In this document: piece after piece, positions 1 through 4,710 of the stretch | Layout: every line of letters starts with the position of its first letter | Numbering within the stretch: position 1 is the stretch's first letter | Source: a virus | Lineage: Duplodnaviria; Heunggongvirae; Uroviricota; Caudoviricetes | IMG/VR virus record: IMGVR_UViG_2541047121_000025 | DNA length: 4,710 bases | Direction: 5' to 3' (one strand) | Made by a program: the position numbers and the translations under genes | The notes under the pieces: model-generated | Databases searched by the model: none | Seen by the model: only the letters and a program-made list of their open reading frames with translations | What the model was told of the DNA's origin: nothing

Positions 1-70
1 ACTCTGTACAGGATTATGTAGTTAGGGTGGGTCACGATCTCTCCCAATCCAGAAACCCGTTCGCTTGGTG
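1..70. repeat. 70-bp direct repeat, copy A (69/70 identical to 239-308); corresponds to an internal segment of the toxin gene, lying immediately left of the left operator
   Basis: Positions 1-70 match 239-308 with one mismatch (44 c vs 282 t). Similarity ends at 71/309. Copy A begins at the window edge, so its true left boundary is unknown. Confidence 0.9.
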
Positions 71-75
71 TATGT

Positions 76-120
76 AATCTACAATAAAAAACTGTTTTTG
101 TGTCAACAGTTTTTAATTGT
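76..120 (-). promoter_or_regulatory. Left operator/promoter unit (OL/pL-like): imperfect inverted repeat ACAATAAAAAACTGT-N10-ACAGTTTTTAATTGT with candidate leftward promoter
   Basis: Arms of 15 bp at 81-95 and 106-120; the left arm is identical to the 15-mer at 1116-1130. On the minus strand a consensus -35 TTGACA (plus 101-106) and a -10-like TAGATT (plus 76-81) are separated by 19 bp. The whole unit is about 90 percent identical to the right unit when reverse-complemented. Promoter assignment is inference. Confidence 0.5.
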
Positions 121-130
121 TGTTTTGGGC

Positions 131-153
131 AAAAAAATCCCTCGAAAGAGGGA
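131..153 (-). terminator. Rho-independent terminator for the leftward regulator-antitoxin-toxin operon
   Basis: On the minus strand: 6-bp stem TCCCTC / GAGGGA with a 4-nt loop (plus 138-153) followed by a run of 7 T (plus 131-137 is AAAAAAA). It lies 18 nt downstream of the toxin stop codon at 172-174. Confidence 0.6.
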
Positions 154-171
154 GTATGAAAATTGTTCAAC

Positions 172-459
172 TCAGATAGAGAAGGGAAATTGTCGCCGAG
201 AATGTGTCACGCTTACAATCTCAATGCTTGAAGCAGCTACTCTGTACAGGATTATGTAGTTAGGGTGGGTCACGATCTCTCTCAATCCAGAAACCCGTTC
301 GCTTGGTGGATATAAGTACGGATGCTCAGATAGAGGTAATACCGATGTTTCAATGCGTATTTTTAGTCTACGTGCTGCCGGTGGGTTCTCCTTGGCGATG
401 TAAGTTATGATCTGGCGCAAATCATCGCGAGCAGACGGTAGCCATAAAATGGGTAACAT
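172..459 (-). CDS. parE2: Type II toxin, ParE/RelE superfamily (ParE2-like), 95 aa
   Basis: Complete ORF. The core REIVTHPNYIILYRV and the C-terminal IEIVSVTHSRRQ match the ParE/RelE fold pattern as I recall it. Its ATG overlaps the stop of the upstream antitoxin ORF (TAATG at 457-461), typical of translationally coupled toxin-antitoxin pairs. Family assigned from memory, not from a search. Confidence 0.8.
   Translation of the reverse strand: MLPILWLPSARDDLRQIITYIAKENPPAARRLKIRIETSVLPLSEHPYLYPPSERVSGLREIVTHPNYIILYRVAASSIEIVSVTHSRRQFPFSI
239..308. repeat. 70-bp direct repeat, copy B, inside the toxin gene (about codons 51-74)
   Basis: Partner of 1-70. On the minus strand it encodes PPSERVSGLREIVTHPNYIILYRV. 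The single mismatch would change R to G if copy A were read in the same frame. Confidence 0.9.
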
Positions 460-650
460 TACTCGCTCTTGTTAGTTACAGCAATTTGAGCAATAAGATT
501 TTCCATTTCAGCCATTACCTCGTCATGTGGAATTGCGGGGCGAGTGTCTGCAAGGCTTGACGTTACTTTAGTGCGCAACCATTCGTTGTAACTGTTTTCT
601 TGTTCGGTAGTTTCGAATTCTGAAACTATCGGAGAAAGGGCTGTACCCAT
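459..650 (-). CDS. paaA2: Small antitoxin (PaaA2-like), 63 aa, partner of the ParE toxin
   Basis: Complete 63-aa ORF directly upstream of and overlapping the toxin start. Minus-strand Shine-Dalgarno GAGGAG sits about 8 nt before the ATG at 650. The motif ALSPIVSEFETTEQENSYNEWLR matches my recollection of PaaA2; identity with the named protein is unverified. Confidence 0.75.
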   Translation of the reverse strand: MGTALSPIVSEFETTEQENSYNEWLRTKVTSSLADTRPAIPHDEVMAEMENLIAQIAVTNKSE

Positions 651-677
651 GGCATAACTCCTCTTCTTGTACTGTGG

Positions 678-1079
678 TCACGCCCGGCGGCTTTTTTGTG
701 CCGCCAGCCACCTAGCAATGGTTTCTTCCATTGATTTTTTCTTGTCTTTGATTTCTTGAAGCATTTTTTCTTGGTCTTCCTCAGGAAACGCACTAAAAGC
801 TTGGAGCAGTTCGCGTTGGCGAGGACCAATTTTCATCGTGTCAGGGGTGAAAATTTGCTCACACTCTTCAGGAGGCAATAAAAACCAATGCAATGGATGC
901 CCTGAAACCTCAACCAGTTTATCCAAACTTGAGGCTTTAGGTGTAGCCTTACCGCTGACCCATTGTTGAACAGTTTGTTGTGTCACACCAATTCTACGGG
1001 CAAGCTCAGCCTGGCTCCATCCAGTTTCCTGAAGAAGCTTGCTGATTCTGTACATAGATACTTCTAGGGCGCTCATCAT
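678..1079 (-). CDS. paaR2: HTH (XRE/Cro-CI type) transcriptional regulator, PaaR2-like; probable repressor in the cI position
   Basis: 133-aa ORF with a helix-turn-helix signature ELARRIGVTQQTVQQWVSG near the N-terminus. It is the first gene of the leftward operon and is divergent from the Cro-like gene across a 108-bp operator region. Start is uncertain (ATG at 1079, 1076 or 1055; no clear Shine-Dalgarno, so possibly leaderless). Confidence 0.8.
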   Translation of the reverse strand: MMSALEVSMYRISKLLQETGWSQAELARRIGVTQQTVQQWVSGKATPKASSLDKLVEVSGHPLHWFLLPPEECEQIFTPDTMKIGPRQRELLQAFSAFPEEDQEKMLQEIKDKKKSMEETIARWLAAQKSRRA

Positions 1080-1115
1080 TATTCAATTTTACAGGTAAAT
1101 ACTGTTAAAAGCATC

Positions 1116-1159
1116 ACAATAAAAAACTGTTGATTGCATACAGTTTTTTATTGTAGGTT
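1116..1159 (+). promoter_or_regulatory. Right operator/promoter unit (OR/pR-like): perfect inverted repeat ACAATAAAAAACTGT-N9-ACAGTTTTTTATTGT with candidate rightward promoter
   Basis: Perfect 15-bp inverted arms at 1116-1130 and 1140-1154. Candidate -35 TTGATT at 1130-1135 and -10-like TAGGTT at 1154-1159 with an 18-bp spacer; an alternative -10 TATAGT lies at 1165-1170. A candidate leftward -10 TAAAAT (plus 1086-1091) would place the regulator transcript start at its ATG. Promoter elements are inferred. Confidence 0.55.
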
Positions 1160-1187
1160 TTGCTTATAGTTTTTAGAGGAGGGCAAA

Positions 1188-1460
1188 ATGCTAGATAGCA
1201 CTCGCGAAAAAATTAGGCAGAAATACACTCAGGCTGAAATAGGTCGTTATATGGGGGTCGCTCAACAGACTGTTTGGCAATGGTTTAGCTTTGGCGTTCC
1301 CCCAAAGCAGGTAATTCCGTTATGCCAACTAATGAAGTGGGAAGTTACCCCGCATGAAATCCGCCCAGATATTTATCCTAACCCAACCGACGGTTTACCT
1401 GTTGGATGTAAGGTTAACACATCAAATGCGCCGGAGTTGATTCATGAAAATCAAGCATGA
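1188..1460 (+). CDS. ydaS: Cro-like DNA-binding protein, YdaS family, 90 aa
   Basis: Strong Shine-Dalgarno AGAGGAGGG at 1175-1183. HTH-like GVAQQTVWQW and a conserved RPDIYP motif typical of YdaS/Cro-like proteins of Rac-type prophages. Divergent from the repressor gene. Confidence 0.8.
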   Translation: MLDSTREKIRQKYTQAEIGRYMGVAQQTVWQWFSFGVPPKQVIPLCQLMKWEVTPHEIRPDIYPNPTDGLPVGCKVNTSNAPELIHENQA

Positions 1461-1869
1461 ACACATCCGCATGGCGATGAATGCCTGGGCGCATCCGGAC
1501 GGCGAAAAAGTACCGGCTGCGAAAATTACCAAAGCGTATTTCGAGCTGGGAATGACGTTCCCGGAACTGTATGACGACAGCCATCCGGAAGCCATGGCTC
1601 GCAATACTCAGAAAATTTTCCGCTGGGTGGAGAAAGACACTCCTGATGCGGTTAAAAAAATTCAGGCGTTGTTACCAGCGATCGAAAAAGCGATGCCGCC
1701 TCCGCTGGTGGCCCGAATGCGCAGCCACAGTTCCGCTTATTTTCGGGAGTTGGTAGAGACGAAGGAACGGCTGGTGAAAGATATTGATGATTTCGTTGCA
1801 TCAGCGATCGTTCTGTTCGATCAGATGAATCGTGGTGGCCCGGCAGGAAACACTCTGGCTGTGCATTAA
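1444..1869 (+). CDS. ydaT: CII-like regulator, YdaT family, 141 aa
   Basis: N-terminus MKIKHEHI and overall size match the YdaT family as I recall it. GGAG lies 9 nt upstream; the start overlaps the end of ydaS by 17 nt. The position after the cro-like gene mirrors cII in lambda. Confidence 0.75.
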   Translation: MKIKHEHIRMAMNAWAHPDGEKVPAAKITKAYFELGMTFPELYDDSHPEAMARNTQKIFRWVEKDTPDAVKKIQALLPAIEKAMPPPLVARMRSHSSAYFRELVETKERLVKDIDDFVASAIVLFDQMNRGGPAGNTLAVH

Positions 1870-1882
1870 TTGGGTAATAAAT

Positions 1883-2392
1883 ATGAGTAATGACAAAAAA
1901 TTGACACTGAGCGTTTACGAAAACAGTCCGCACATCTGGCGTGGCGGTTTATCTGATGTGGAGCTGGCAGAGTGGTTGATACATAAAGCTAATGCGCTGC
2001 TCTGGCGTTTGTCAGCCAGAGAACAGCGCAAGGAAACCAGAATAAAGCTGGCTGATGCAGAAGCGTGTGCCGGGCTTATTGAGGATTATACAAATCTTGG
2101 TATTTCTTCAGCAGAGAGTGATCCCATTCAGCCTCTGAGCAGGGAGTCAATCCAGCACGCTGGTTGTATGGCACATCTTGTAACTGCTCGTCAACATGAG
2201 GTGGGTATTGGATCACTTCCGGCGGGATATTCGCTGATTCCAGAGCTGGTTGAAGCAAGAAAATCAGTTCAGAAAAAGAGAGATGACGCACTTCAATTAT
2301 TGAGAGAGCACTATGGCGCGATACCAGAATGCGAACAGCGTCGATACCCTGAAGGTTATGAATGGATGCAGTCTCTTTTTGAAGTTCGCTAA
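1883..2392 (+). CDS. Hypothetical protein, 169 aa, no recognised domain; accessory gene between the cII-like and replication genes
   Basis: ATG at 1883 is 14 nt after the ydaT stop (the ORF track extends to 1832 but there is no in-frame ATG before 1883). First-codon-position composition is gene-like (G about 34 percent, T about 17 percent), whereas the overlapping minus-strand ORF has the reverse bias. No strong Shine-Dalgarno. Predicted largely helical. Confidence 0.6.
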   Translation: MSNDKKLTLSVYENSPHIWRGGLSDVELAEWLIHKANALLWRLSAREQRKETRIKLADAEACAGLIEDYTNLGISSAESDPIQPLSRESIQHAGCMAHLVTARQHEVGIGSLPAGYSLIPELVEARKSVQKKRDDALQLLREHYGAIPECEQRRYPEGYEWMQSLFEVR

Positions 2393-2609
2393 TCAATATG
2401 TCGAGACGAAGGTATGTTTCGGCGCGCAGCCAGGCTCTGTAATCCGGGAGCATTTCGGGGCTGTTACACCAGCGGTTTGTTGCTGCAACATTTAATACAT
2501 GAGCCTGATAAAGGCTTTTCAAAAAATACATGTCGAACCTCCTCTGGTTCTGTCGATTGGGAACCACAGATTATATCCGGAGGAAGGTTCGGCACCAGAT
2601 GAGGTAGCC

Positions 2610-3701
2610 ATGCGTGATTACGCAAAAGTTTCTCCGCGATTCTGGCTGGGAGAAACGGGGAGAGAACTTAGAAAGGCGGGTGCAGAAGCGCAAGTTGTTG
2701 CTTTTTACCTGATGACATCCCCTCACGCAAATATGCTGGGTTTGTATTACCTGCCAGTTTTATACCTTGCTCATGAAACCGGGCTTGGTCTGGAAGGGGC
2801 TTCAAAGGGGCTTAAAAGGGCTGTTGAAGCTGGTTTTTGTAGCTATGACCATGATGCAGAGATGGTCTGGGTCCATGAAATGGCAGCCTGGCAGGTTGGG
2901 GAAACGTTGAAGCCTGGCGATAACCGTTGTGCAGGTGTCAGGAATGAGTATGCATCATTACCTGAAAACGCTTTTCTGTCAGTGTTTTACGACAGATATA
3001 AAACGGATTTCCATCTGGATGTGAGGCGGAATAATAGCCGAAATTCGGTAAGGGGCTTCGAAGGGGCTTTTAAGGGGCTTCGAAGCCAAGAACAGGAACA
3101 GGAGCAGGAGAAAGAACAGGAACAGGACAAAAACACTATGGTTCATGGCAAAAAAAACACCACGAACCAGGCAGGGGATGTTCAGACCGTCAATCCTGGT
3201 CAGCCAGCAGGCACGACACCGGAAGCCGATTCGGGCGCTGTGCAGCAGGTGATGACCGCAGGGTCGGAGCAATCACACCAACTGCAGCAGCCTGAAGCCG
3301 ATTCCGCCATTCAGCGGGAAGCCGATCGGGTAGTCCCGGAAAGCACCGGGCAGTCTGTGGGACGAGTGGATTATCCGGATGTGTTCGAACAGGTCTGGCG
3401 GGAATACCCGTTGCGTGCTGGGGCAAACCCGAAGAAATCCGCTTTCAGTGCCTGGAAGGCCAGATTGCGCGAGGGGGTGCCACCAGAGACCATGCTGGAT
3501 GGTGTGAGGCGTTACGCGAGATACCTGGCGGCGACCGGGAAAGCGGGAACGGAATTTGTTCAGCGAGCGACGACGTTTTTTGGGCCGGACCGGAATTTTG
3601 AAAACCCCTGGTTGCTCCCGGTAAGCGGCACGAACAACCAGCGTTGTGTGAATCATATTTCTGAACCGGATACCGAAATTCCGCCGGGATTCAGGGGGTG
3701 A
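2610..3701 (+). CDS. Replication initiator/organiser, lambda O-like or YdaU-like, with internal candidate iterons and an EQ-rich linker
   Basis: GAGG Shine-Dalgarno at 2601-2604 before ATG 2610. The N-terminal segment MRDYAKVSPRFWLGETGRELRK...LGLYYLPVLYLAHETG and the C-terminal segment YPDVFEQVWREYPLRAGANPKKSAFSAWKARL look like phage replication-initiator domains (assigned from memory). An in-frame ATG at 2499 is an alternative start but has no Shine-Dalgarno. The gene is followed within 7 nt by a DnaC-like gene. Confidence 0.8.
   Translation: MRDYAKVSPRFWLGETGRELRKAGAEAQVVAFYLMTSPHANMLGLYYLPVLYLAHETGLGLEGASKGLKRAVEAGFCSYDHDAEMVWVHEMAAWQVGETLKPGDNRCAGVRNEYASLPENAFLSVFYDRYKTDFHLDVRRNNSRNSVRGFEGAFKGLRSQEQEQEQEKEQEQDKNTMVHGKKNTTNQAGDVQTVNPGQPAGTTPEADSGAVQQVMTAGSEQSHQLQQPEADSAIQREADRVVPESTGQSVGRVDYPDVFEQVWREYPLRAGANPKKSAFSAWKARLREGVPPETMLDGVRRYARYLAATGKAGTEFVQRATTFFGPDRNFENPWLLPVSGTNNQRCVNHISEPDTEIPPGFRG
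2781..2823. repeat. Iteron-like cluster 1: GGGGCTT-type motif at 11-bp spacing
   Basis: GGGGCTT at 2796 and 2807, GGGCTG at 2818 and GGGCTT at 2781. The three phased copies fall in three different codon phases of the initiator gene. Confidence 0.45.
3050..3087. repeat. Iteron-like cluster 2: AAGGGGCTT x3 at 11-bp spacing with an embedded 12-bp palindrome GGCTTCGAAGCC; candidate replication origin core
   Basis: GGGGCTT at 3052, 3063 and 3074, again in three different codon phases. The palindrome GGCTTCGAAGCC is at 3076-3087. A purine-rich, A-rich tract follows directly (3088-3160). Confidence 0.45.
3090..3131 (+). repeat. Hexanucleotide tandem repeat (GAACAG-like x7) encoding an EQEQEQEKEQEQDK linker
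   Basis: Read directly: gaacag gaacag gagcag gagaaa gaacag gaacag gacaaa, in frame with the initiator gene. Confidence 0.85.
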
Positions 3702-3707
3702 TGTGGC

Positions 3708-4454
3708 ATGAAAAACATTGCGGCAGCCGGGGTTCTTGAACGTATTCGCAGACTTGCACCACAGGCGTCGGTTCCACCGTACCGGACGGTGGAGGAGTGG
3801 CGGGAATGGCAACTTGCTGAAGGACGAAAACGCAGCGAGGAGATTAACCGCCAGAATCACCAGTTGCGGGTGGAAAAAATCCTGAATCGTTCGGGCATCC
3901 AGCCTCTGCACAGCAAATGCTCGTTTGCGAATTATCAGGTGCAGAACGACGGGCAAAAATACGCGCTGAGCCAGGCCAAATCCATAGCTGACGAACTGAT
4001 GACCGGGTGCACGAATTTTGTGTTCAGCGGTAAAACCGGCACCGGGAAAAATCACCTTGCAGCGGCGATGGGTAACCGGCTGATGGCGAAGGGGCGCAGC
4101 GTGATTATCGTCACCGTGTCTGATGTCATGAGCGTGTTGCATGACAGCTACGACAACGGCAAATCCGGGGAAAAATTTTTACAGGAGCTTTGCAGTGTTG
4201 ATTTGCTGGTCCTGGATGAAATAGGCGTTCAGCGGGAGACGAAAAACGAGCAGGTGGTATTACACCAGATAATTGATCGCCGGACAGCATCACTGTGCAG
4301 TGTCGGGATGTTAACAAACCTGAATCATGCCGCAATGAGTACACTTCTTGGTGAGAGGATTATGGACCGCATGACCATGAACGGTGGTCGATGGGTGACG
4401 TTTAACTGGGATAGCTGGCGTCCAAATGTCAGCAATATGAGGGTTGTGAAGTAA
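3708..4454 (+). CDS. DnaC-like helicase loader (AAA+, IstB/DnaC family; YdaV-like replication protein), 248 aa
   Basis: Walker A GKTGTGKNHLAAAMG at about 4030-4075 and Walker B LLVLDEIG at about 4204-4227. A G-rich Shine-Dalgarno AGGGGG lies upstream of ATG 3708. It directly follows the initiator gene, as the P/DnaC-type gene does in lambdoid replication modules. Confidence 0.9.
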   Translation: MKNIAAAGVLERIRRLAPQASVPPYRTVEEWREWQLAEGRKRSEEINRQNHQLRVEKILNRSGIQPLHSKCSFANYQVQNDGQKYALSQAKSIADELMTGCTNFVFSGKTGTGKNHLAAAMGNRLMAKGRSVIIVTVSDVMSVLHDSYDNGKSGEKFLQELCSVDLLVLDEIGVQRETKNEQVVLHQIIDRRTASLCSVGMLTNLNHAAMSTLLGERIMDRMTMNGGRWVTFNWDSWRPNVSNMRVVK

Positions 4455-4475
4455 TTTTGTCCGGAGGAAATTTTA

Positions 4476-4710
4476 ATGGAAACCGTATCTGACGCACTGA
4501 AAGCACTGAAAAAAGCCTCTTCACATGTGGTGGCAGCTCGCCTTGGAATCAGTCGTGAAGAGGCTGTCAACGAGCTGTGGGAACTCAAAATAAATGGCGT
4601 CGTTGATAAAACTGGTCACACCTGGTTTCTGGCTGGCGAAGGTGAATCCCGGGTAACCGAAGAGCGGCCAGTAAAATCTGAAGCACAGGATATGCTGACC
4701 AGGGAGGTCG
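4476..4710 (+). CDS. Hypothetical protein, 5' part only (runs off the window end); possible winged-helix DNA-binding fold
   Basis: GGAGG at 4463-4467 then ATG 4476; open to the window end (78 codons, METVSDALKALKKASSHVVAARLGISREEAVNELWELKINGVV...). It is missing from the ORF track because no stop codon is inside the window. The fold guess is weak. Confidence 0.6.
   Translation, partial: METVSDALKALKKASSHVVAARLGISREEAVNELWELKINGVVDKTGHTWFLAGEGESRVTEERPVKSEAQDMLTREV

Follow-up and report, generated by a model that had tools for sequence, protein, structure and literature searches.

Does an operon that encodes an HTH regulator, an antitoxin and a ParE toxin, and that lies between two similar operator/promoter units, form the immunity switch of a lambdoid prophage? 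We addressed this question in a 4,710-nucleotide stretch of viral DNA, hereafter the window. An earlier note, written from the sequence alone, had proposed the lambda OL-cI/rexAB-OR architecture with the toxin-antitoxin pair in the rexAB slot, and both the sequence and experiments on a paralogue match this proposal. We consider it highly likely that this locus serves a defective O157:H7 lambdoid prophage as its immunity switch, with the 133-aa HTH protein as a CI-type repressor, and that the switch is heteroimmune to that of the sister prophage CP-933P. The anatomy of the sequence, its homologies, the conservation of its operators and the variability of its cargo in relatives were read directly.

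An O157:H7 chromosome matches window positions 65-4710 at 99.98% identity. The matching prophage carries an integrase, an ExoVIII-type exonuclease, dicB and a DnaC-type loader as neighbouring genes, in agreement with the published description of Sp4 (PMC2669165). Given this identity and these neighbours, the source is most likely the E. coli O157:H7 prophage CP-933M/Sp4, which is lambdoid and defective. Exactly two paaA-parE loci are present per O157 genome, which is also the count in the literature (PMC4803016, PMC8630535), and ours is most likely the one named paaR1-paaA1-parE1, a name that we take from secondary sources. Of 5,426 complete E. coli genomes, 506 contain at least 80% of window positions 1-1500. 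Copies of the toxin-antitoxin pair with 99% identity or more occur in 437 genomes, among them O157, O26, O103 and O121 strains. None of the deposited phage genomes carries the repressor at more than 60% identity, so there is no inducible phage model.

The extreme left end of the window, which the earlier note had passed over, differs from the natural left flank of the locus. Positions 1-64 repeat a stretch of parE with a single mismatch, at position 43 (Arg to Gly), and join the OL/PL unit on its left side at a TTGGTG microhomology. The junction at 64/65 has no contiguous match in the 5,426 complete E. coli genomes and is absent from 130 fetched loci, a 30-mer across it has no exact match in viral, genome or metagenome contigs, and the private variant of the fragment is matched in none of the collections searched. 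We regard this fragment as probably a contig-end artefact. The one other difference between window and reference lies 10 nt before the 3' end. In the window, a PL transcript would enter the parE fragment, and every reference has the ydfA-dicB operon there.

Features of the window, with positions, strands and supporting observations
Feature	Position	Strand	Remarks
Anomalous parE fragment	1..64	-	near copy of parE-internal 239-302
PL -10 TAGATT	76..81	-	AATCTA invariant in 27/28 unique relatives
OL1 candidate operator ACAATAAAAAACTGT	81..95	.	match on +, 0 mismatches; within PL spacer
PL -35 TTGACA	101..106	-	TGTCAA invariant in 28/28 unique relatives
OL2 candidate operator ACAGTTTTTAATTGT	106..120	.	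match on -, 1 mismatch
Intrinsic terminator, end of paaR-paaA-parE operon	153..138	-	TCCCTC-TTTCG-AGGGA then T run
ParE-family toxin, 95 aa, ParE1-type paralogue of ParE2	172..459	-	Pfam PF05016, E = 2.9e-17
PaaA-family antitoxin, 63 aa, without DNA-binding domain	459..650	-	Pfam PF21217 PaaA2, E = 5.6e-19
CI-like repressor, 133 aa	678..1079	-	434-like HTH, linker, C-terminal hairpin
PRM-like -10 TAAAAT	1086..1091	-	6 nt upstream of ATG at 1079; conserved in relatives
OR3 candidate operator ACAGGTAAATACTGT	1091..1105	.	overlaps PRM
OR2 candidate operator ACAATAAAAAACTGT	1116..1130	.	match on +, 0 mismatches; abuts PR -35; centre ~-44 from PRM start
PR -35 TTGATT	1130..1135	+	
OR1 candidate operator ACAGTTTTTTATTGT	1140..1154	.	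match on -, 0 mismatches; within PR spacer
PR -10 TAGGTT	1154..1159	+	TAGnnT in 20 close relatives + L043; TAATCT in L044 group
Cro-like YdaS-family regulator	1188..1460	+	recognition helix QQTVxQW, common to repressor
YdaT box, exact TTGATT-N6-AATCAA	1437..1454	.	OM site of CII-like YdaT (PMC9986795)
YdaT, CII-like regulator	1444..1869	+	PDB 3c4r + 8bt1, E ~1e-83; Pfam PF06254

The genes for the HTH protein, PaaA and ParE, all on the minus strand, are the sole annotated genes between the two units and are followed by a terminator, as had been claimed. The toxin exceeds the curated cut-off of its Pfam family and matches ParE2 (PDB 5cw7) over residues 1-93 with E = 3e-36; substitutions in parE are biased to third codon positions. 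The antitoxin matches PaaA2 (PDB 3zbe) with E = 1.4e-20, and the two genes overlap by base 459; the locus thus has the small antitoxin, translationally coupled to its toxin, that characterizes PaaR-PaaA-ParE systems. A gap of 27 bp separates the HTH gene from paaA on the same strand, with no minus-strand terminator scored in it and a z-score of -2.0 for RNA hairpins at the paaR-paaA junction. Toxicity and specific neutralisation are attributed to both O157 paralogues in the summary that PMC4803016 gives of Hallez et al. 2010. With PADLOC, neither the pair nor the other cargo genes seen in relatives matched a defence system. Further right, two ORFs overlap within 1883-2531, where the codon-position test is ambiguous.

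The two units, 81-120 and 1116-1154, are palindromic, and together they hold four copies of ACAATAAAAAACTGT at no more than one mismatch, where 0.2 would be expected by chance; four copies were reached in 0/200 shuffles. When 13.4 kb of that O157:H7 prophage are scanned, no site of this type appears beyond the same four. The claim of two near-matching operator/promoter units, about 1 kb apart, with a common 15-bp site is upheld. A third right-hand site, previously overlooked, lies at 1091-1105, so that the right-hand set comprises three ACA-N9-TGT sites over 1091-1154, overlapping candidate promoter hexamers, and the left-hand set two over 81-120, all five candidates being 15 bp long. The similarity between the units had been put at about 90 percent, which is too high: positions 76-120 are 82% identical (37/45) to the reverse complement of 1116-1159. 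The differences sit in the central spacer, and the arms are complementary at 95% (76-95 vs 1140-1159) and 94% (103-120 vs 1116-1133).

Inverted units about 1 kb apart, around exactly three genes, might also be terminal repeats, left by an inserted mobile cassette with repressor, antitoxin and toxin. We find this exceedingly improbable, as each unit is itself palindromic and overlaps promoter hexamers, a target-site duplication is absent, and a relative without cargo (L051) keeps both units. The mosaic breakpoints against CP-933P also fall elsewhere: they lie within the gene for the repressor and at the YdaT box (window 1433), rather than at the units.

As parts of an immunity switch, the units should hold early promoters, and an outward-facing candidate promoter can be read off the sequence in each, with the hexamers and spacers that had been proposed (19 nt leftward, 18 nt rightward). 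A generic promoter scan of the window reported none of PR, PL and PRM; it misses PR and PL owing to the 19-nt spacer of PL in the window allele and the weak -10 of PR, a 3/6 match. Our calls for all three promoters rest instead on conservation across relatives: over 28 unique relatives the PL hexamers hardly vary, and T, A and T are retained in the PR -10. In a relative with an 18-nt spacer (L016), the leftward promoter is the sole consensus match in 1.4 kb (10/12). The OL palindrome of this relative also scores as terminator-like, a score that merely mirrors its symmetry, and we rejected the palindromes as terminators. The stem of the intrinsic terminator at the end of the operon is kept, with paired changes in L043. 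The repressor ATG at 1079 has no Shine-Dalgarno sequence, and by analogy with paaR2 and cI (PMC8630535) we predict a leaderless repressor mRNA from the PRM-like promoter.

Conservation bears on whether both units matter. Across 20 unique relatives, a single operator column out of 45 varies at OR, compared with 28 out of the 63 remaining intergenic columns (Fisher p = 3e-7); for OL, the counts are 9/30 and 42/77 (p = 0.03), so that conservation is modestly above background. In relatives whose repressors are 80%, 68% and 48% identical to ours, other genes or none occupy the space between repressor and OL, and both operator sets are still present. Inverted similarity between OR and OL, about 1 kb apart, recurs with sequences of their own in relatives with another recognition helix (the L047 type) and in those with another domain (CP-933P, L052).

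The first descriptions of the locus present it as a three-component toxin-antitoxin system (PMC4803016, PMC3141249), and one could suppose that the module is self-contained, with the HTH protein autoregulating at the right unit only and the left unit a decayed duplicate with no role at an early promoter. The lower conservation of the OL operators and the 19-nt PL spacer would fit such decay. We nevertheless judge this very unlikely, since the PL -35 and -10 are essentially invariant in the 28 unique relatives and lead into a conserved ydfA/DUF1391-dicB operon, since relatives that lack the toxin-antitoxin pair retain both operator sets, and since PL of the paralogue has an activity that PaaR2 represses ~100-fold (PMC8630535).

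An immunity switch with two operator sets requires a repressor to read them. In the HTH protein, a disordered linker connects a helix-turn-helix domain (residues 4-67) to a helical hairpin (residues 86-132). The hairpin is homologous to the C-terminus of PaaR2, with 42% identity over the C-terminal 98 aa; BLASTP aligns residues 37-133 only, and the N-terminal domain has no homology to that of PaaR2. Because the N-terminal domains are unrelated, the binding data for PaaR2 are not directly transferable. Pfam finds no Peptidase_S24 domain in the repressor, the model of which comprises the HTH domain, the linker and two helices, and the Sp4 repressor is also reported to have no peptidase domain (PMC2669165). 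The best match to its DNA-binding domain among solved structures is the 434 repressor (E = 3e-5), where TQQTVQQ aligns with TQQSIEQ and the QQ...Q contacts are kept. Foldseek with the AlphaFold model returned only generic XRE-type HTH domains and no informative match for the C-terminal hairpin. From the 434-like recognition helix set against the half-site (PMC1636474), and from the paralogue experiments (PMC8630535), we infer that the 133-aa protein binds these operators and represses PR and PL.

The palindromes might instead be read mainly by the Cro-like YdaS, whose recognition helix is nearly the same as that of the repressor (54% identity over the 28 aa of the helix-turn-helix) and whose CP-933P counterpart footprints the same region (PMC8630535). 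As a replacement for the leftward HTH protein this is highly improbable: in its alignment to the 434 repressor the HTH protein keeps the QQ...Q contacts, and it is conserved along with the sites. A role for YdaS rather complements the main explanation, as the operators of lambda, 434 and CP-933P serve both proteins.

We propose the following course for the switch. A repressor dimer would read the 15-bp operators through the half-site ACA(A/G)T, at three sites in OR and two in OL. Occupation of the promoter-proximal site, in the PR or PL spacer, together with its neighbour would shut off both outward early promoters, and the site beside the weak PRM -35 probably stimulates the leaderless transcript of the repressor, so that PRM would be activated by the repressor itself; OR3 would limit this transcription. 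Oligomerisation and OL-OR looping may proceed via the PaaR2-like C-terminal hairpin. The repressor transcript would take in paaA and parE and stop only at the 138-153 terminator, so that toxin and antitoxin would be made whenever the prophage is repressed, and their expression would be coupled to lysogeny. YdaS, with its near-identical recognition helix, would compete for the repressor's sites, and the CII-like YdaT would bind the box at 1437-1454. Induction would take place without RecA cleavage. The prophage is defective, and amplification of Sp4 is reported to depend wholly on the replication of the neighbouring Sp5 (PMC2669165); the choice between lysis and lysogeny may therefore no longer lie with this switch.

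Comparison with relatives suggests a modular chassis, in which the C-terminal tail of the repressor, paaA-parE, and ydaT with its box are fixed and recombination swaps a specificity cassette of DNA-binding domain, operators and Cro-like gene. The YdaT box is the edge where DNA homology to CP-933P restarts. There would be at least three heteroimmune switches, and the one in the window would have a 434-like reader that has adapted to operators of 15 bp. This scheme is tentative, and we give it not quite an even chance; a 15-bp operator read by a 434-like domain would require a dimer geometry different from that of 434.

For the sister prophage CP-933P, a toxin-antitoxin pair that replaces rexAB in a CI/OL/OR switch has already been published and examined by experiment, and the interpretation in the earlier note, although supported, is not novel. 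New here are a 434-like second immunity type, the candidate operator OR3, the PRM-like promoter with its predicted leaderless start, the conservation of the operators and the variable cargo slot. The practical value lies in annotation, namely the operator set, the promoters and the probable leaderless start of this second immunity type. Relatives also offer a natural series for the role of the toxin-antitoxin pair, with the same repressor accompanied by the pair, by an internally deleted pair, by other cargo or by none.

The closest known system is paaR2-paaA2-parE2 of CP-933P/Sp12 in the same strain, which Jurenas et al. 2021 established as a CI/OR/OL switch by EMSA, footprinting and reporters (PMC8630535). 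PaaR2 binds OR and forms octamers in a CI-like manner, PaaR2 and YdaS repress PR and PL, and the data comprise DNase footprints, GFP reporters for PR, PRM and PL, and a leaderless paaR2 mRNA (PMC8630535); paaA2-parE2 occupies the place of rexA and rexB (Prolic-Kalinsek et al. 2023, PMC9986795). The order and strands of these genes and of ydaS-ydaT are as in the window, as are the ~1 kb between OR and OL/PL, the leaderless-compatible repressor start and the missing peptidase domain. The toxin belongs to the same ParE family (68% identity in close relatives of the window), the PaaA-family antitoxin and the C-terminal domain of the regulator are homologous, and YdaT is 88% identical at the DNA level, with the TTGATT-N6-AATCAA box in both. 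The regulator N-terminus is unrelated, the Cro-like protein is another one, and the operators are ACAAT-N5-ACTGT in the window and GTTTAGTAA-type repeats in CP-933P; because all three differ, the prophage is predicted from its sequence to be heteroimmune to CP-933P, as its switch should be.

Phage 434 shares the half-site ACAAT and the QQ...Q recognition residues with the window. Its operator (consensus ACAATNNNNATTGT, PMC1636474) is 14 bp long with a 4-bp centre, whereas ours is 15 bp with a 5-bp centre; its repressor ends in a LexA-like domain, ours in a short helical hairpin; and the DNA-binding domains are only ~35-40% identical. The 434 type is defined by a 14-bp ACAA-N6-TTGT operator read by a QQ...Q helix, and the 15-bp sites place the window, judged by its sequence, outside this specificity class, in a system that appears to work like 434.

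Short repressors in the CI position without a cleavage domain are known from Sp4, Sp6, Sp9 and Sp10 of O157 Sakai, from Gifsy-1 and Gifsy-2, and from Qin as DicA (PMC2669165). The Gifsy repressors are ~31% identical to ours. Qin has ydfA-dicB as its leftward genes downstream, as does the O157:H7 prophage that matches the window. Unlike the window, most such loci lack a toxin-antitoxin pair in the interval from repressor to leftward promoter.

Lambda (OL-rexB-rexA-cI-OR-cro-cII) is compared here as summarised in PMC8630535 and as generally known. Both systems have divergent repressor and cro genes, three OR operators spaced 24-25 bp centre to centre, a second set at the leftward early promoter, cargo cotranscribed with the repressor and ending before OL, and a leaderless repressor mRNA; in the case of the window, the cotranscription and the leaderless mRNA are predicted. 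The lambda repressor has an S24 autocleavage domain that ours lacks, and lambda has three recognisable OL sites where the window has two. OL and OR lie ~1.0 kb apart in the window and ~2.4 kb apart in lambda, the unrelated YdaT stands in the role of CII, and a ParE toxin-antitoxin pair is the cargo in place of RexAB.

Over 4,646 bases (65-4710), all but its first 64 nt, the window differs at a single position from the chromosome of E. coli O157:H7 strain FRIK944. The matching prophage carries an integrase, an ExoVIII-type exonuclease, dicB, ydfB and a DUF1391 gene on its left side and an O-like initiator with a DnaC-type loader on its right, a content that agrees with the published description of the Sakai prophage Sp4, which we take to be CP-933M. 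Sp4 has a repressor without a peptidase domain, and its loader and recombinase are of the DnaC and ExoVIII types, respectively (PMC2669165). Substitutions among relatives show a third-codon-position bias in the four small genes, all of which are therefore under purifying selection.

The 15-mer ACAATAAAAAACTGT, allowing at most one mismatch, occurs at four sites in the window (OL1, OL2, OR2 and OR1 in the table), where 0.2 are expected by chance; four were reached in 0 of 200 shuffles, and no extra copy was found elsewhere in 13.4 kb of the matching prophage. These matches confirm the half-site that an earlier note had placed in both a left operator/promoter unit (OL/PL) and a right one (OR/PR). 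Within each unit the paired sites form one palindrome; the arms are 94-95% complementary between the two units, and the identity of about 90% claimed for the units is a little too high for the whole units (82%). The outward candidate promoters proposed there are present in a common layout, with one operator lying across the promoter spacer and a second abutting the -35, and the HTH gene, paaA and parE are, as had been claimed, the only genes between the units, closed off by a terminator.

Features of the switch region
Feature	Position	Strand	Remark
OL1	81-95		ACAATAAAAAACTGT site
OL2	106-120		ACAATAAAAAACTGT site
PL	left unit	-	TTGACA, 19 nt, TAGATT
Terminator	153..138	-	
ParE toxin	172-459	-	
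PaaA antitoxin	459-650	-	
HTH protein	678-1079	-	133 aa
TAAAAT hexamer	1091..1086	-	overlapped by OR3
OR3	1091-1105		ACAGGTAAATACTGT site
OR2	1116-1130		ACAATAAAAAACTGT site
OR1	1140-1154		ACAATAAAAAACTGT site
PR	right unit	+	TTGATT, 18 nt, TAGGTT
YdaS-like Cro	1188-1460	+	
YdaT	1444-1869	+	
Replication genes	right of YdaT		

A relaxed ACA-N9-TGT search (six matches in the window vs 1.3 expected) yielded a fifth site, OR3. The TAAAAT hexamer that it overlaps lies 6 nt upstream of the repressor ATG at 1079, and a Shine-Dalgarno sequence is absent there, so that a leaderless repressor mRNA is predicted from a promoter resembling PRM, the repressor's own promoter in lambda. Centre-to-centre distances between neighbouring OR sites are 24 and 25 bp, and OR2 is centred ~44 bp before the presumed start of the PRM transcript, at about the position from which lambda CI activates PRM. 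The paaR2 transcript was shown to be leaderless, like that of lambda cI (PMC8630535).

A scan of viral contigs gave 50 loci encoding relatives of the HTH protein, a CI-like repressor, and OR was compared across 20 unique sequences with repressors 91-100% identical. Here the two perfect OR operators are invariant, OR3 differs at one central position, and the 9-bp inter-operator spacer and remaining OR intergenic DNA vary freely (variable columns, 1 of 45 in operators vs 28 of 63 elsewhere; p = 3e-7). The corresponding counts at OL are 9 of 30 and 42 of 77 (p = 0.03). The PL hexamers are essentially unchanged across 28 unique sequences, distant ones included, the PR -10 keeps its T, A and T in every relative compared, and the terminator stem is retained, a distant relative showing paired changes in it. 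In most relatives the PL spacer is 18 nt, and one of these has PL as its sole consensus promoter match in 1.4 kb. The window and the O157 allele carry an extra T in the OL1-OL2 spacer (96-105), which lengthens the PL spacer to 19 nt; PL may be weaker in this lineage as a result.

The interval between the repressor gene and OL is a cargo site. It holds one 120-aa gene with a weak EACC1-like match in a Salmonella-type relative whose repressor is 80% identical (L043, 3553-3915), a 134-aa gene and a DUF2767 gene in Klebsiella/Raoultella-type relatives (68%; L044, 3547-4225), and nothing in a third (48%; L051, 3426-3466), where OL lies ~110 bp past the repressor gene; PADLOC returned zero matches among these alternative cargo genes. 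In the close relatives L040 and L041, an internal deletion (~3430-3553) joins the 5' part of paaA to the 3' end of parE while repressor, OR and OL stay intact, which indicates that the switch tolerates loss of the toxin-antitoxin pair. The locus could be read as a stand-alone toxin-antitoxin module, or as a mobile cassette with the two units as its terminal repeats, but the variation of the slot speaks against both readings, since all cargo variants retain both operator sets. A 66% relative with a different recognition helix keeps the pair, and its OR and OL share a 35-nt inverted similarity of their own, as do those of CP-933P, the sister O157:H7 prophage carrying paaR2-paaA2-parE2.

On the minus-strand RNA, 650-715 contains a GC-rich hairpin (GGCGGC-N8-GCCGCC) at the repressor gene's last codons and a second stem pairing the repressor stop-codon region with sequence immediately 5' of the paaA start; the fold has a z-score of only -2.0. 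Farther right, there is an overlap between two long ORFs of opposite strand: 1883-2392 (+) matches phrog_8304 end to end (E = 4e-120), and 2076-2531 (-) is the ORF that RefSeq annotates, as 'ECs1072 family', the annotation given to a neighbouring gene in the matching prophage. Codon-position counts are flat in their overlap. Within the O-like initiator gene, five exact copies of AAGGGGCTT with an 11-bp period form two clusters (2794-2813 and 3050-3080) that look like origin iterons, adjoined by a GAACAG repeat (3090-3127) encoding a Gln/Glu-rich linker.

Positions 1-64 nearly duplicate 239-302 inside parE, a single mismatch turning a conserved Arg into Gly, and stand where all references have the ydfA-dicB flank. 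The join to the reference sequence is a TTGGTG microhomology (64/65-70) at the left boundary of the PL unit, close to where PL transcription would start; neither this junction nor the Arg-to-Gly variant had a match in any collection searched. This odd 5' end is more likely to be a contig-end artefact than a real 238-bp duplication. Taken with the one mismatch to the reference within 65-4710, which lies at 4701 and thus 10 nt from the 3' end, it points to the window being an entire contig with unreliable ends.

The repressor is modelled as a five-helix HTH (4-67), a disordered linker and a helical hairpin (86-132), and both domain search and structure model indicate that a peptidase domain is absent. 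The YdaS-like protein has this helix-turn-helix in common (54% identity over 28 residues, including QQTVxQW), so the two should recognise common sites in the manner of CI and Cro. The half-site is that of the 434 consensus operator, ACAATNNNNATTGT (PMC1636474), which is 14 bp long, whereas the window's operators measure 15 bp.

O157 genomes hold two paaA-parE-type loci, and the toxin and antitoxin of the window are clearly paralogous to ParE2 and PaaA2. PaaR2, recovered from a CP-933P-type locus, aligns with the window regulator over its C-terminal 98 residues only (42% identity); the DNA-binding domain, Cro-like gene and operators of CP-933P are all unlike those of the window. DNA homology to CP-933P extends over 183-743 and starts again at 1433, so that the mosaic boundary falls at an exact TTGATT-N6-AATCAA box (1437-1454), the published primary YdaT binding site (PMC9986795), which overlaps the ydaT start codon. 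The window's YdaT is closely homologous to the YdaT proteins of solved structure (E about 1e-83). In CP-933P, PaaR2 and YdaS bind OR, PR, PRM and PL are repressed, and operators are present at OL; a leaderless paaR2 mRNA, PaaR2 octamerisation and bistability were also shown (Jurenas et al., PMC8630535). There, paaA2-parE2 stand in place of rexA and rexB, and PaaR2 in place of CI (PMC9986795). The earlier note was thus correct in reading a lambda-like switch with a toxin-antitoxin pair in the rexAB position, a design already established for this sister locus. Because the DNA-binding domain and operators differ, the window should hold a heteroimmune version of this switch, with a predicted mechanism that is well supported by homology and conservation. 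The concept of a toxin-antitoxin pair in a CI-type switch is already published; apparently new in the literature searched are this operator set, OR3, the predicted leaderless PRM and the 434-like 15-bp sites.
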